Assembly (NCBI RefSeq): GCF_055900595.2
Contig: NZ_CM148325.1
Reading direction: 5' to 3' (one strand)
DNA: 64,000 nt
Notes under the pieces: generated by a model
What the model saw: only the letters and a program-made list of their open reading frames with translations
What the model was told of the DNA's origin: nothing
The model's database searches: none
Shown here: in pieces, positions 7,159 to 33,724 of the stretch
Position numbering within the stretch: the stretch's first letter is position 1
How the letters are laid out: each line of letters opens with the position of its first letter
Position numbers and translations under genes: made by a program

Positions 7159-7391
7159 TATGCCGGGGAGGGTATTGCTTCCTCCCGCTTGCAAGGAACG
7201 CCGGATGAAACGTTAAGTCGTCATCCGGCAGCATATTCAACCCCCGGAAACGATAAAAATTCCCTTGAAACCGTTGTTTATTCATGCGTTGCGATTAACA
7301 ATACGCTTTTCCAGAGAGCGGCTTTTAACAATGCCCTAACCTGATTTCAGGTGACGTACAATGCCAGTCTCTCAGACCTTCAGAGGGTGTT

Positions 7392-14492: not shown

Positions 14493-14596
14493 ACGTTCCT
14501 CCTTTATATGAACTCACCGGAGCAGGCTCCGGTGAGGTGTTGTGAACTTAAGTCTGGACGAAATGCCCGAAAACGAAAGTTTGAGGCGTAAAAAGC

Positions 14597-19129: not shown

Positions 19130-19864
19130 GTGGGTAATAATTTAATGCAGACGGACCTTTCCGTCTGGGGTATGTATCAGCACGCCGATATTGTCGTTAA
19201 GTGCGTGATGATTGGGCTTATTTTGGCCTCCGTAGTCACTTGGGCAATCTTCTTCAGTAAGAGCGTTGAGTTCTTCAATCAGAAGCGTCGCCTGAAACGC
19301 GAACAGCAACTGCTGGCCCAAGCGCGTTCCTTGAACCAGGCCAACGATATCGCCGCTGATTTTGGTAGCAAAAGCTTAAGCCTGCATTTGCTCAATGAAG
19401 CGCAGGATGAGCTGGAACTGTCAGAAGGCAGCGACGATAACGAAGGTATTAAAGAACGTACCAGCTTCCGTCTGGAGCGTCGGGTCGCCGCCGTGGGGCG
19501 TCAAATGGGCCGCGGTAACGGCTACCTTGCAACCATCGGCGCGATTTCGCCGTTTGTGGGCCTCTTTGGTACGGTCTGGGGCATCATGAACAGCTTTATC
19601 GGTATTGCGCAAACGCAGACCACTAATCTGGCTGTCGTTGCGCCGGGTATCGCAGAAGCTCTGTTAGCAACGGCAATCGGCCTCGTGGCAGCGATTCCAG
19701 CGGTCGTTATCTATAACGTATTTGCACGTCAGATTGGCGGCTTTAAAGCGATGCTGGGTGATGTCGCAGCGCAGGTATTATTGCTGCAAAGTCGTGACCT
19801 GGATCTGGAAGCCAGCGCCGCTGCGCATCCGGTTCGTGTCGCCCAAAAATTACGCGCAGGATAA
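19130..19864 (+). CDS. exbB: TonB-system proton channel ExbB
   Basis: 244-aa ORF with three TM segments, MotA/TolQ/ExbB family. Confidence 0.95.
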   Translation: MGNNLMQTDLSVWGMYQHADIVVKCVMIGLILASVVTWAIFFSKSVEFFNQKRRLKREQQLLAQARSLNQANDIAADFGSKSLSLHLLNEAQDELELSEGSDDNEGIKERTSFRLERRVAAVGRQMGRGNGYLATIGAISPFVGLFGTVWGIMNSFIGIAQTQTTNLAVVAPGIAEALLATAIGLVAAIPAVVIYNVFARQIGGFKAMLGDVAAQVLLLQSRDLDLEASAAAHPVRVAQKLRAG

Positions 19865-19870
19865 TGTTCG

Positions 19871-20296
19871 ATGGCAATGCATCTTAACGAAAACCTCGAC
19901 GATAACGGCGAAATGCATGATATCAACGTGACGCCGTTTATCGACGTGATGTTGGTTCTGCTGATTATCTTTATGGTGGCAGCGCCGTTAGCGACGGTAG
20001 ATGTGAAGGTGAACTTGCCTGCTTCTACCAGCACGCCGCAGCCTCGTCCGGAAAAACCGGTTTATCTGTCGGTGAAGGCGGACAACTCGATGTTTATCGG
20101 TAACGATCCGGTCACCGATGAAACAATGGTTACAGCGCTGAATGCGTTAACCGAAGGTAAGAAAGATACCACTATCTTCTTCCGTGCGGATAAAACCGTC
20201 GATTACGAGACGTTGATGAAGGTAATGGATACGCTGCATCAGGCGGGTTACCTGAAGATAGGTCTGGTCGGCGAAGAAACTGCCAAAGCGAAGTAA
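19871..20296 (+). CDS. exbD: TonB-system protein ExbD
   Basis: 141-aa ORF with single TM (FIDVMLVLLIIFMV), ExbD/TolR family. Confidence 0.95.
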   Translation: MAMHLNENLDDNGEMHDINVTPFIDVMLVLLIIFMVAAPLATVDVKVNLPASTSTPQPRPEKPVYLSVKADNSMFIGNDPVTDETMVTALNALTEGKKDTTIFFRADKTVDYETLMKVMDTLHQAGYLKIGLVGEETAKAK

Positions 20297-20304
20297 AGAC
20301 AATT

Positions 20305-20403
20305 GCCTGATGCGCTACGCTTATCAGGCCTACAAAATATATTGCAACATATTGAATTTGCATGACATGTAGGCCGGATAAGGCGTTTAGACCGCATCCG
20401 GCA
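20305..20403. repeat. REP (repetitive extragenic palindromic) elements downstream of exbD
   Basis: Two inverted REP-like units (GCCTGATGCGCTACGCTTATCAGGCCTAC and GTAGGCCGGATAAGGCGTTTAGACCGCATCCGGCA). Confidence 0.6.
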
Positions 20404-20421
20404 AGAGTTAAATGCATAATG

Positions 20422-20457
20422 ATGCCCGGTTGCTTTTCGCAACCGGGCATTTTTTTA
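20422..20457 (+). terminator. Rho-independent terminator for exbBD
   Basis: 12-bp stem ATGCCCGGTTGC/GCAACCGGGCAT, 5-nt loop, followed by TTTTTT. Confidence 0.6.
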
Positions 20458-21339
20458 GCCTAAATGCTCGCCGCCGCACACGCCGTGCACTTCTGCGGTG
20501 ACATAGCTCGACTCCTGACTTGCTAGATAAACATATACAGGGGCCAGTTCCGCCGGTTGCCCCGCACGTTTCATTGGTGTTTGCTGACCAAACTGCGGGA
20601 TCTTATCCTGCGTTTGTCCACCGGAAATTTGCAGTGCTGTCCAGATAGGGCCTGGTGCGACAATGTTCACTCGAATGCCTTTTTCTGCGACCTGTTTTGC
20701 CAGGCCACGGCTGTAGTTCAGAATCGCCGCCTTCGTAGCCGCATAGTCCAGCAAATGTGGGCTTGGCTGGTACGCCTGGATTGACGAAGTGGTGATGATA
20801 CTGGCACCTTTCGGTAGCAGGGGGATCGCTTCCTGGGTGAGCCAGAACAGTGCGAAAACGTTAATGGCAAACGTCTTTTGAAACTGTTCGCTGGTGAGGT
20901 CTGCAATATCAGGAATAGCAACCTGTTTCCCGGCGACCAGCGCCATAATATCCAGCCCGCCTAACGCCTTATGCGCTTCGTGAACCAGCGAACGGGCAAA
21001 CTTCTCATCGCTTAAATCGCCAGGCAGCAGGACGGCTTTGCGTCCGCATTCTTCAATGATCTTTTTCACATCCTGAGCGTCTTCTTCTTCCACGGGAAGA
21101 TAACTGATCGCTACGTCAGCGCCTTCACGCGCGTAAGCGATGGCGGCAGCACGACCGATTCCGGAATCGCCCCCTGTCACCAGTGCTTTACGATCTTTCA
21201 GGCGACCGCTACCAACATAGGTTTTCTCGCCGCAATCCGGCACCGGTGTCATTTTCGCCTGGATGCCTGGCGTCGGTTGTTTCTGTTTGGGATATTCACC
21301 AGTGTAATACTGCGTGGTCGGGTCTTTTAAATGAGACAT
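20455..21339 (-). CDS. yghA: Short-chain dehydrogenase/reductase YghA
   Basis: 294-aa ORF with TGGxxGIG Rossmann motif ([10 protein letters not shown]) and SDR catalytic motif. Confidence 0.9.
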
Positions 21340-23800: not shown

Positions 23801-25129
23801 CTGAGAGATCCCCTCATAATTTCCCCAAAACGTAACCATGTGTGAATAGATTTTGAGTAAGCAGGGTTGCAGCCACGAGTGAGTCTTCCCTTGTTATTGT
23901 GTAGCCAGAATGCCGCAAAACTTCCATGCCTAAGCGAACTGTTGAGAGTACGTTTCGATTTCTGACTGTGTTAGCCTGGAAGTGCTTGTCCCAACCTTGT
24001 TTCTGAGCATGAACGCCCGCAAGCCAACATGTTAGTTGAAGCATCAGGGCGATTAGCAGCATGATATCAAAACGCTCTGAGCTGCTCGTTCGGCTATGGC
24101 GTAGGCCTAGTCCGTAGGCAGGACTTTTCAAGTCTCGGAAGGTTTCTTCAATCTGCATTCGCTTCGAATAGATATTAACAAGTTGTTTGGGTGTTCGAAT
24201 TTCAACAGGTAAGTTAGTTGCTAGAATCCATGGCTCCTTTGCCGACGCTGAGTAGATTTTAGGTGACGGGTGGTGACAATGAGTCCGTGTCGAGCGCTGA
24301 TTTTTTCGGCCTTTAGAGCGAGATTTATACAATAGAATTTGGCATGAGATTGGATTGCTTTTAGTCAGCCTCTTATAGCCTAAAGTCTTTGAGTGACTAG
24401 ATGACATATCATGTAAGTTGCTGATAGGTTTCCAGTTTTCCGCTCCTAGGTCTGCATATTGTACTTTTCCTCTTACTCGACTTAACCAGTACCAACCCAG
24501 CTTCTCAACGGATTTATACCATGGCACTTTAAAGCCAGCATCACTGACAATGAGCGGTGTGGTGTTACTCGGTAGAATGCTCGCAAGGTCGGCTAGAAAT
24601 TGGTCATGAGCTTTCTTTGAACATTGCTCTGAAAGCGGGAACGCTTTCTCATAAAGAGTAACAGAACGACCGTGTAGTGCGACTGAAGCTCGCAATACCA
24701 TAAGCCGTTTTTGCTCACGGATATCAGACCAGTCAACAAGTACAATGGGCATCGTATTGCCCGAACAGATAAAGCTAGCATGCCAACGGTATACAGCGAG
24801 TCGCTCTTTGTGGAGGTGACGATTACCTAACAATCGGTCGATTCGTTTGATGTTATGTTTTGTTCTCGCTTTGGTTGGCAGGTTACGGCCAAGTTCGGTA
24901 AGAGTGAGAGTTTTACAGTCAAGTAAGGCGTGGCAAGCCAACGTTAAGCTGTTGAGTCGTTTTAAGTGTAATTCGGGGCAGAATTGGTAAAGAGAGTCGT
25001 GTAAAATATCGAGTTCGCACATTTTGTTGTCTGATTATTGATTTTTGGCGAAACCATTTGATCATATGACAAGATGTGTATCCACCTTAACTTAATGATT
25101 TTTACCAAAATCATTAGGGGATTCATCAG
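23801..25129 (-). mobile_element. IS10 (IS4 family), complete 1329-bp copy
   Basis: Ends CTGAGAGATCCCCTCATAATTTCCCC (inside end, 23801) and CTGATGAATCCCCTAATGATTTTGG (outside end, reverse at 25129); contains the 402-aa transposase; 9-bp direct repeats flank it. Confidence 0.95.
23814..25022 (-). CDS. IS10 transposase
   Basis: 402-aa ORF MCELDILHDSLYQFCPELHLKRLNSLTLACHALLDCKTLTLTELGRNLPTK... recognised as IS10/Tn10 transposase. Confidence 0.95.
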   Translation of the reverse strand: MCELDILHDSLYQFCPELHLKRLNSLTLACHALLDCKTLTLTELGRNLPTKARTKHNIKRIDRLLGNRHLHKERLAVYRWHASFICSGNTMPIVLVDWSDIREQKRLMVLRASVALHGRSVTLYEKAFPLSEQCSKKAHDQFLADLASILPSNTTPLIVSDAGFKVPWYKSVEKLGWYWLSRVRGKVQYADLGAENWKPISNLHDMSSSHSKTLGYKRLTKSNPISCQILLYKSRSKGRKNQRSTRTHCHHPSPKIYSASAKEPWILATNLPVEIRTPKQLVNIYSKRMQIEETFRDLKSPAYGLGLRHSRTSSSERFDIMLLIALMLQLTCWLAGVHAQKQGWDKHFQANTVRNRNVLSTVRLGMEVLRHSGYTITREDSLVAATLLTQNLFTHGYVLGKL

Positions 25130-25138
25130 GGCAAAGTG
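25130..25138. repeat. IS10 target-site duplication, right copy (GGCAAAGTG)
   Basis: Direct repeat of 23792-23800. Confidence 0.9.
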
Positions 25139-32377: not shown

Positions 32378-32626
32378 ATGTGTATTGGCGTTCCAGGCCA
32401 GGTGCTGGCTGTCGGTGAAGATATTCACCAGCTTGCGCAGGTTGAAGTATGTGGTATCAAGCGCGACGTGAATATCGCCCTGATTTGTGAAGGTAACCCT
32501 GCCGATCTGCTGGGCCAGTGGGTGCTGGTACACGTCGGATTTGCCATGAGCATCATCGACGAAGATGAAGCCAAAGCCACATTAGACGCGCTGCGCCAAA
32601 TGGATTACGACATTACCAGCGCGTGA
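32378..32626 (+). CDS. hybG: Hydrogenase maturation factor HybG (HypC family)
   Basis: 82-aa ORF starting MCIGVPGQV (HypC N-terminal Cys2 motif). Confidence 0.9.
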
Positions 32627-32635
32627 TGATTAGCT

Positions 32636-32822
32636 TTCGTAGGCCTGATAAGACGCGACAGCGTCGCATCAGGCATTGTGCACGATTGCCGGATGCGGCG
32701 TGAACGCCTTATCCGGCCTACCGTTCGGGTGCCGATTGTAGGCCTGATAAGACGCGGCAGCGTCGCATCAGGCATTATGCACGATTGCCGGATGCGGCGT
32801 GAACGCCTTTTCCGGCCTACCT
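32636..32822. repeat. Tandem REP/BIME elements between convergent hybG and yghU
   Basis: Two near-identical ~85-bp units (GTAGGCCTGATAAGACGCG.CAGCGTCGCATCAGGCATT.TGCACGATTGCCGGATGCGGCGTGAACGCCTT.TCCGGCCTAC). Confidence 0.7.
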
Positions 32823-32857
32823 CGGCCTGGATGGCTTGCTGCGACGAACACCAACCC

Positions 32858-33724
32858 TTACCCCTGACGCTTATCTTCCGTATTCGTCTCGAAATCACTG
32901 GCGTCATGGCGTTCATGCAACTGCTCGTTCAGCGGTCCGTTGGTGCGGTTAACAATACGCCCACGCTTCACCGCCGGACGTTCGCCCACTTCTTTCGCCC
33001 AGCGTTGCACATGTTTATAACTTCCCGCATCCAGAAACTCTGCGGCATCATACACGCCGCCGAGCACCACGTTGCCAAACCACGGCCAAATCGCCATATC
33101 CGCAATGGTGTACTCATCGCCCGCAACAAACTTATGCTGCGCCAGTTGCTTATCCAGCACGTCGAGCAGGCGCTTGGCTTCCATAGTAAAGCGGTTGATG
33201 GCGTACTCAATTTTCACCGGCGCGTAATGGTAAAAGTGACCAAAACCACCGCCGAGGAACGGCGCGGCACCCTGTAACCAGAACAGCCAGTTCAGCGTTT
33301 CAGTCCGTTTTGCCAGATCCTGCGGCAGGAAGTAGCCAAATTTCTCCGCCAGATAAAGCAGAATCGATCCAGACTCAAACACGCGGATCGGCGGAGTATG
33401 GGTATGGTCGCGCAGCGCCGGGATCTTCGAGTTTGGGTTCACTTCGACAAAGCCGCTGGAGAATTGATCGCCATCGCCAATACGAATCAGCCAGGCGTCG
33501 TACTCTGCACCAGTAACGCCCAGCGCCAGCAGCTCCTCAAGCATAATCGTTACTTTCTGACCGTTCGGCGTTCCCAGTGAATAGAGTTGCAGCGGATGTT
33601 TGCCCACCGGCAGCGTTTTTTCATGCGTCGGACCAGAAACCGGGCGATTGATATTGGCGAACGCGCCGCCAGCGGATTTATCCCACGTCCAGACTTTCGC
33701 GGGCTGATAAGTATTGTCTGTCAT
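32858..33724 (-). CDS. yghU: Nu-class glutathione S-transferase-like protein YghU
   Basis: Start at ATG 33724 (MTDNTYQPAKVWTWDKSAGG..., 288 aa). Confidence 0.9.
   Translation of the reverse strand: MTDNTYQPAKVWTWDKSAGGAFANINRPVSGPTHEKTLPVGKHPLQLYSLGTPNGQKVTIMLEELLALGVTGAEYDAWLIRIGDGDQFSSGFVEVNPNSKIPALRDHTHTPPIRVFESGSILLYLAEKFGYFLPQDLAKRTETLNWLFWLQGAAPFLGGGFGHFYHYAPVKIEYAINRFTMEAKRLLDVLDKQLAQHKFVAGDEYTIADMAIWPWFGNVVLGGVYDAAEFLDAGSYKHVQRWAKEVGERPAVKRGRIVNRTNGPLNEQLHERHDASDFETNTEDKRQG

Follow-up and report, generated by a model that had tools for sequence, protein, structure and literature searches.

REP and BIME sequences are the most abundant repeats in the intergenic DNA of E. coli. They are used as targets by IS621, an IS110-family element with a bridge-RNA-guided recombinase. 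Its natural bridge-RNA target is the 11-nt sequence ATCAGGCCTAC, with a CT core (PMC11208160). The definition of BIME-2 followed here is that of the Gilson/Bachellier classification as given by Ton-Hoang et al. (2012; PMC3333891). BIME-2 copy number differs between strains, and TnpA-REP (RAYT) recombines BIMEs in vitro, cleavage and rejoining at CT sites being offered as a route to amplification (PMC3333891). The closest described array is REP325, in the yjdM-yjdN spacer of K-12, whose y-linker-z2 unit is the naRNA4 of the literature. In K-12 we found REP325 to have a period of 100 and 5.8 copies, with 13-nt inner linkers and 17-nt linkers between the units. As to function, Rho-dependent 3' ends are described as carrying protective stem-loops after exonuclease trimming, and a 2026 preprint presents REPs as partly Rho-dependent terminators and as stabilisers, working both ways between convergent genes. 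According to the same preprint, genes that end in a REP show no general gain in mRNA half-life and REP effects depend on context.

The BIME-2 family has long been described and its variation in copy number from strain to strain has itself been published, as have roles in 3'-UTRs, gyrase binding and targeting by IS621, and the locus analysed here matters little beyond its annotation. What is new is only local, namely the allele frequencies, a two-unit allele that belongs to a single haplotype, and the occupancy of the hybG-yghU site by IS621.

A BIME-2 array between hybG and yghU

We analysed a stretch of 64,000 nt, referred to below as the window. An earlier note on this DNA had described two near-identical palindromic units of about 85 bp in tandem at 32636-32822, lying between convergent genes. 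A repeat search of the window recovered them with coordinates that agree within 3 nt: two copies of 84 nt (32639-32722 and 32738-32821), 96% identical with 3 mismatches and spaced by 99 nt. Tandem Repeats Finder gave for the same array a period of 99, 1.8 copies, 96% matches and a score of 345. The convergent setting likewise holds, with hybG on the + strand and yghU on the - strand, both from the open reading frames and from an annotated genome, that of strain EcPF15, which is 100% identical to the window over 681 bp and whose annotation names both flanking genes. The features of the region are as follows.

32378-32626 (+): hybG coding sequence, last gene of the hyb operon, TGA stop at 32624-32626; open reading frame, annotated in EcPF15 and K-12
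32639-32722 (no strand assigned): BIME-2 unit 1, from repeat and palindrome search, folding and the Rfam naRNA4 match
32639-32642: GTAG of unit 1
32643-32674: z2 REP hairpin of unit 1
32675-32687: 13-nt linker of unit 1, ATTGTGCACGATT
32688-32717: y REP hairpin of unit 1
32718-32721: CTAC of unit 1
32722-32737 (no strand assigned): head-to-head linker between the units, 16 nt, CGTTCGGGTGCCGATT
32738-32821 (no strand assigned): BIME-2 unit 2, from the same four sources as unit 1
32738-32741: GTAG of unit 2
32742-32773: z2 REP hairpin of unit 2
32774-32786: linker of unit 2, ATTATGCACGATT
32787-32816: y REP hairpin of unit 2, in which an A-to-T change at 32810 opens one stem pair
32817-32820: CTAC of unit 2
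32858-33724 (-): yghU coding sequence, 867 nt, glutathione-dependent disulfide-bond oxidoreductase; open reading frame and annotation

The spacer between the two genes measures 231 bp and the array lies entirely inside it, in extragenic DNA that serves as 3' untranslated region to both genes. The GTAG of the first REP starts 12 nt past the hybG stop, the base of its stem stands 16 nt past it, and at the other end 37 nt separate the array from the stop codon of yghU. Along the + strand the array runs GTAG-z2, 13 nt, y-CTAC, 16 nt, GTAG-z2, 13 nt, y-CTAC, and its period is 99. The two units differ at 32658/32757 (A/G), 32678/32777 (G/A) and 32711/32810 (A/T). In both of them the z2 palindrome is imperfect and 32 nt long (GCCTGATAAGACGCG..CGTCGCATCAGGC), and the y palindrome is imperfect and 30 nt long (GCCGGATGCGGCGTGAACGCCTTATCCGGC). 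Arm complementarity is 86% throughout the four REP units, and the stems contain an internal bubble.

Folded alone, each hairpin reaches -18 to -22 kcal/mol whichever strand is taken; the z scores are -3.5 to -6.1, and none of 200 shuffled sequences was as stable. On the + strand the hairpins of unit 1 gave -21.9 and -21.3 kcal/mol. Least stable is the y REP of unit 2 (-18.1 kcal/mol), as the A-to-T change at 32810 leaves one of its stem pairs open. For the spacer as a whole the folding energy is -122 kcal/mol on each strand (z = -5.3 on + and -5.9 on -), and its predicted minimum-energy structure is in part one long hairpin in which unit 1 is paired to unit 2. Inside unit 2 there is also a sigma-70-like match on the - strand (32803-32774; TTCACG, 18 nt, CATAAT; 9 of 12 positions), at chance level, with one found and 0.6 expected.

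The element is a BIME-2 made of four REP units in alternating orientation, z2-y-z2-y. The units (32639-32674, 32688-32721, 32738-32773 and 32787-32820) have the attributes of REPs, that is, imperfect palindromes of 30-40 nt with GTAG at the foot of the stem, a mismatch in the stem and an extragenic position in a 3' UTR. The z2 units agree with the z2 query GCCTGATGCGACGCTG..GCGTCTTATCAGGCCTAC, and the y units with the y query TGCCGGATGCGGCGT.AACGCCTTATCCGGCCTAC, of PMC11208160. Further, the array has z2 and y units and not z1, which alternate across a short linker and are repeated in tandem with linker motifs, and the number of units varies between strains while the copies within the locus stay alike. 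It thus shares with described BIME-2 elements the alternation of z2 and y, the GTAG and CTAC feet, the mismatch bubble, the short linker within the unit and the strain-variable copy number, and nothing essential sets it apart. Only the linkers are specific to the locus, ATT[G/A]TGCACGATT within units and CGTTCGGGTGCCGATT between them. An error in the class would need an error of sequencing or assembly, which is unlikely because the same junction occurs in 97 independent complete genomes. The K-12 MG1655 record that we used carries no annotated REP features, and in the K-12 strain J53 the REP unit (L001, 1760-1841) bears an NCBI pseudogene call that is an annotation artefact of translated REP sequence. 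Annotation pipelines sometimes put spurious hypothetical proteins on REP repeats.

Both units were also recognized by the Rfam model of naRNA4 (RF02564, gathering score 59.5) on the - strand, unit 1 at 32642-32718 with 93.2 bits and unit 2 at 32741-32817 with 86.9 bits and one non-standard pair flagged. All 77 model positions are spanned in each case, and on the + strand the match is weaker (60.3 bits for unit 1). Judged by sequence, this match is a statement about class and not evidence of a functional small RNA at hybG-yghU.

Two other arrays are close enough to be compared in detail. REP325 has the same y-linker-z2 unit at 89-93% identity, the same 13-nt inner linker, a period of 100 as against 99 here, and a GCACCC/GGGTGC core in the linkers between units that is common to both arrays. 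It differs in having six units and not two, and in lying inside a tandem operon and not between convergent genes. The BIME-2 array of the purK-ybcF spacer aligns at about 90% with the whole two-unit hybG-yghU array, linker included, has a period of 100 and is likewise placed between convergent genes. It differs in its number of units (at least four), in its linkers (CGTTCCGACACCGCCT and ATGGTGTGCCGATT) and in the lower identity of its units (91-95%).

Spacer alleles, the second unit and IS621

The earlier note had suggested that REP copy number at this site be compared across strains, and the comparison revealed a highly polymorphic spacer, with anything from half a unit to two units. We used a set of 5,426 complete E. 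coli genomes, the allele shares being taken from evenly sampled rows. K-12 and most strains have one unit at hybG-yghU, and some have only the y REP (about 15% of the sampled genomes). Spacers of 69, 122, 123, 132, 141 and 231 bp were found among the sampled strains, of which four illustrate the range.

69 bp: only a y REP (strain AZ162)
122 bp: one unit that has lost 10 bp between GGCCT repeats (K-12 J53, KO11FL)
132 bp: one complete unit (SCU-108)
231 bp: two units (the window)

The two-unit allele less one period has exactly the length of the one-unit allele (231 - 99 = 132). For a census of the two-unit state, coverage of a long query was uninformative, as BLAST joins overlapping pieces, and a 37-nt query across the inter-unit linker was used instead, which matches only where the linker is present. 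This junction was found in 97 of the 5,426 genomes (1.8%), in one place each, always chromosomal and at 100% identity. Arrays of three or more units with this linker were absent from the 97 junction-positive genomes, and the exact junction occurred at no other locus in the 5,426. Since 96 records are at least 99% identical across the whole 270-bp spacer query, the two-unit allele is essentially one haplotype. One of the carrier records is labelled ST69, a hint of lineage and nothing further.

Unit 1 and unit 2 share 96.4% identity. Each matches the orthologous single units of other strains at 95-98%, while against the units of purK-ybcF or REP325 the values are 89-95%. Because each unit has its nearest relatives within the locus, in the other unit and in the orthologous one, the array appears to have arisen by local amplification. 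Of the three variable positions, the K-12 unit disagrees with unit 1 at one and with unit 2 at two, and for this reason it resembles a sequence from which both could have descended. The identities (96-98% within the locus, 89-95% elsewhere), together with the junction being found nowhere else, exclude that a unit was brought in from a different BIME-2 array. Plain tandem duplication of the local sequence is ruled out as well, since the sequences on either side of the single unit in one-unit strains do not yield the 16-nt linker.

Exact copies of the IS621 target ATCAGGCCTAC number three in the window, with none expected by chance.

20323-20333 (+): exact IS621 target in the z1 REP behind exbD
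32639-32649 (-): exact IS621 target in unit 1
32738-32748 (-): exact IS621 target in unit 2

The same target therefore opens each unit of the array on the - strand, and other strains are occupied precisely there. In about 12-13% of the sampled rows (5 of 40 and 7 of 60) the alignment with the hybG side stops exactly at the GTAG of the REP. In two such strains, UMB200201_11 (L008 and L013) and isolate 648 (L009), the gene of the IS110-family IS621 transposase was confirmed within the spacer. The element lies at the orthologue of window 32639-32642 (about 700-905 in L008, about 700-905 in L009 and 1323-2600 in L013). Its junctions read GTAG/ATACTG... on the left and ...ATACAAG/GCCTGAT on the right, which places them exactly at the CT/AG core in the foot of the z2 REP. 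Compared with these occupied sites, both targets of the array in the window are empty and its spacer is free of IS621. Strain 06_3288, with the 123-bp allele, reads GTAGATACTGATAAG in place of GTAGGCCTGATAAG (L010 560-575; window 32639-32653), and the IS621 copy of L013 has ATACTG at its left end. This allele may be the footprint of an IS621 that was imprecisely lost.

That REP arrays act as recombination hotspots had been put forward in general terms; at this very site the idea is borne out by the length alleles of the spacer and by IS621 insertions exactly in the REP. The locus offers a natural allelic series (y REP alone, one unit, two units, occupied by IS621) that could be used to test the effect of REP dosage on the 3' ends of two converging transcripts, and an example of a bridge-recombinase target that is occupied in some wild strains.

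Transcript ends and the possible roles of the array

Between 32300 and 33100 we found no terminator-like site (hairpin plus U-run) on either strand. In K-12, where the locus has one unit, Adams et al. (2021; Supplementary file 2) list two bicyclomycin-sensitive regions of Rho termination around it, one at 3139530(-), antisense to yghU (Rho score 3.34, p = 7.8e-7), and the other at 3139969(+), antisense to hybG/hybF (Rho score 4.19, p = 8.7e-6). Mapped through the K-12 locus, they correspond to about 32921(+) and about 32373(-) of the window, so that each lies past the array in its own direction of transcription, at the coarse resolution of the 800-nt comparison windows on which the K-12 regions rest. 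Each of the mapped points is preceded, on its own strand, by C-rich and G-poor RNA.

32820-32909 (+): C-rich, G-poor stretch 3' of the array, putative rut-like Rho loading region, GC skew -0.33 to -0.36
32400-32489 (-): antisense to hybG, C-rich in RNA of the yghU strand, putative rut-like, GC skew of the + strand +0.27 to +0.33

A dominant Term-seq 3' end is listed by Adams et al. (2021) for neither hybG nor yghU, which possibly reflects poor expression of hyb under aerobic conditions. The supplements of the 2026 preprint do not mention hybG or yghU, and the literature searched contained no paper naming the two genes together.

By analogy with the family, these data fit REPs that act here as two-way barriers and stabilisers of 3' ends, with Rho terminating downstream. 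Transcripts from the hyb operon and from yghU would both run into the array and would be ended by Rho shortly past it, within C-rich RNA that is antisense to the opposite gene. Exonucleases working 3' to 5' would then trim them back to the REP hairpins, which as two-way barriers would fix where the hybG-terminal and yghU mRNAs end and shield these 3' ends. The DNA of the array would be expected to bind gyrase and to be cleaved by it, as the y REPs of BIME-2 are, and to serve as substrate for REP-directed recombination, whether by RAYT/TnpA-REP, by slippage or unequal exchange, or by insertion of IS621. What the second unit contributes is most likely a further pair of barrier hairpins and another IS621 target, and no new function. 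From the family and from the one-unit locus of K-12, we consider it highly probable that the element, a z2-y-z2-y BIME-2 in a shared 3' spacer, is a two-way 3'-end barrier, an expected gyrase site and a recombination substrate. The stabilisation of upstream mRNA by REP arrays, also raised by the earlier note, agrees with the REP literature and with the Rho regions that K-12 has on both strands past the element, but at this site itself the stabilising role is putative.

Other readings of the array deserve to be weighed against this one. Its main role might be exerted on the DNA, as a fixed gyrase site where converging transcription piles up positive supercoils, with the second unit doubling the capacity. 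Sites of gyrase cleavage are over-represented in BIME-2 according to the literature, more in y than in z2 REPs, they persist or rise after rifampicin, and a spacer between convergent genes is a plausible place for gyrase. However, only a subset of BIME-2 is cleaved by gyrase, the study concerned does not name the hybG-yghU locus, and the z2-y unit must be dispensable, with some 15% of the sampled genomes keeping the y REP alone; nor would a role with gyrase preclude another at the level of RNA. We regard a primary role of this kind as possible, though rather doubtful. The closeness of the first REP to the end of hybG suggests an effect on translation instead, in which the hairpin would stall terminating ribosomes and lower HybG through tmRNA rescue and mRNA decay. 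REPs within 15 nt of a stop codon reportedly depress translation by ribosome stalling, as Liang, Rudd and Deutscher are said to have described in Mol Cell in 2015. Here the stop ends at 32626, the GTAG starts at 32639 (12 nt) and the stem at 32643, and the 2026 preprint names regulation of translation among the roles proposed for REPs. Measured to the base of the stem, however, the distance is 16 nt and borderline, and the one-unit alleles have an identical spacing from stop to REP, which leaves the duplication unexplained; we think this reading unlikely.

The match to naRNA4 raises the question of whether the units are genes of small RNAs of that type, each giving a yghU-strand RNA of about 77 nt that would bind HU, bridge cruciforms and condense the chromosome. 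Both - strand matches to RF02564 cover the full model and exceed its gathering score, the units would on that strand fall in the 3' UTR of yghU and be transcribed in the sense of naRNA4, and the original work on naRNA4 reported HU binding and a condensation of DNA dependent on two hairpins. Yet RF02564 in effect models any BIME-2 unit, so a match to it indicates class and not function. Besides, the 2026 preprint, which includes the original senior author, finds no measurable compaction of the nucleoid by REP325/naRNA4 and REP-REP contacts that do not depend on HU, and reassigns REP325 to local regulation in the 3'UTR. In view of this we hold the small-RNA reading to be very improbable. Protein-coding sequence in the repeat can be practically discounted. 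Open reading frames of 103 aa (32605-32916, -) and 199 aa (32678-33277, +) do run across the array, the 99-nt period keeps the frame, and PGAP placed a hypothetical-protein pseudogene on the REP of strain J53. Against this, neither of the REP-spanning frames has a Pfam match at E values up to 1, both either run antisense through yghU or overlap the end of hybG, the annotation marks the J53 feature as incomplete and frameshifted, and the site tolerates the loss of a whole unit and the insertion of an IS.

As for the carriers of two units, the haplotype might alter 3'-end processing, stability, read-through and antisense interference of the hyb and yghU mRNAs, as a regulatory allele specific to its lineage, besides doubling the IS621 targets. 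We would give this suggestion only a small chance of being right.

The exbD-yghA site and other features of the window

The earlier note had also pointed to a second REP pair with a terminator after exbD (20305-20457). The pair and the terminator are indeed there, but the pair is of another class, a z1 and a y REP in a BIME-1-like arrangement. The features are the following.

19130-20296: exbB and exbD, with exbD itself at 19871-20296
20305-20333 (+): z1-type REP, TGCCTGATGCGCTACGCTTATCAGGCCTAC, which holds an exact IS621 target
about 20369-20403 (-): y-type REP, inverted relative to the z1
20421-20457 (+): intrinsic terminator with a 13-bp stem, 8 G-C pairs and a T-run (hairpin and T-run at 20421-20451)
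20455-21339 (-): oxidoreductase open reading frame of 294 aa, yghA by position, converging on exbD

The linker between the z1 and the y is about 35 nt long and A+T-rich, and the pair is present in a single copy. On these features the exbD site is classed as BIME-1-like and not as BIME-2. A BIME-1 is a single-copy pair of z1 and y with a long L linker in which an IHF site lies. Like the hybG-yghU array, this BIME-1/RIP-type site is an inverted REP pair in a convergent spacer; it differs in its z1 in place of z2, in the A+T-rich linker of about 35 nt, in being single copy and in having a true terminator. The linker contains an IHF consensus with one mismatch (20345-20357, -), close to what chance provides, given 77 such matches in the window for 55 expected.

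Elsewhere in the window, the hairpins at 7200-7229 and 60053-60079 were considered as y REPs (GCCGGATG at the start, CATCCGGC at the end) and rejected, having neither the REP interior nor GTAG/CTAC feet. They are probably ordinary stem-loops of the terminator type. Two small RNAs of Rfam scored above their gathering scores on the - strand, C0719 at 58061-58282 (294 bits) and ES173 at 14531-14594 (99 bits). Finally, an IS10-like element occupies 23814-25130, with a DDE transposase frame of 402 aa at 23814-25022 (-; Pfam DDE_Tnp_1, E = 1.5e-24) and, within the element, a match to the antisense RNA-OUT of Rfam at 25015-25084 (+, 97 bits). This insertion is absent from the best-matching genomes, because their alignment starts only at about 25130 (yghX/yghW/hybO).
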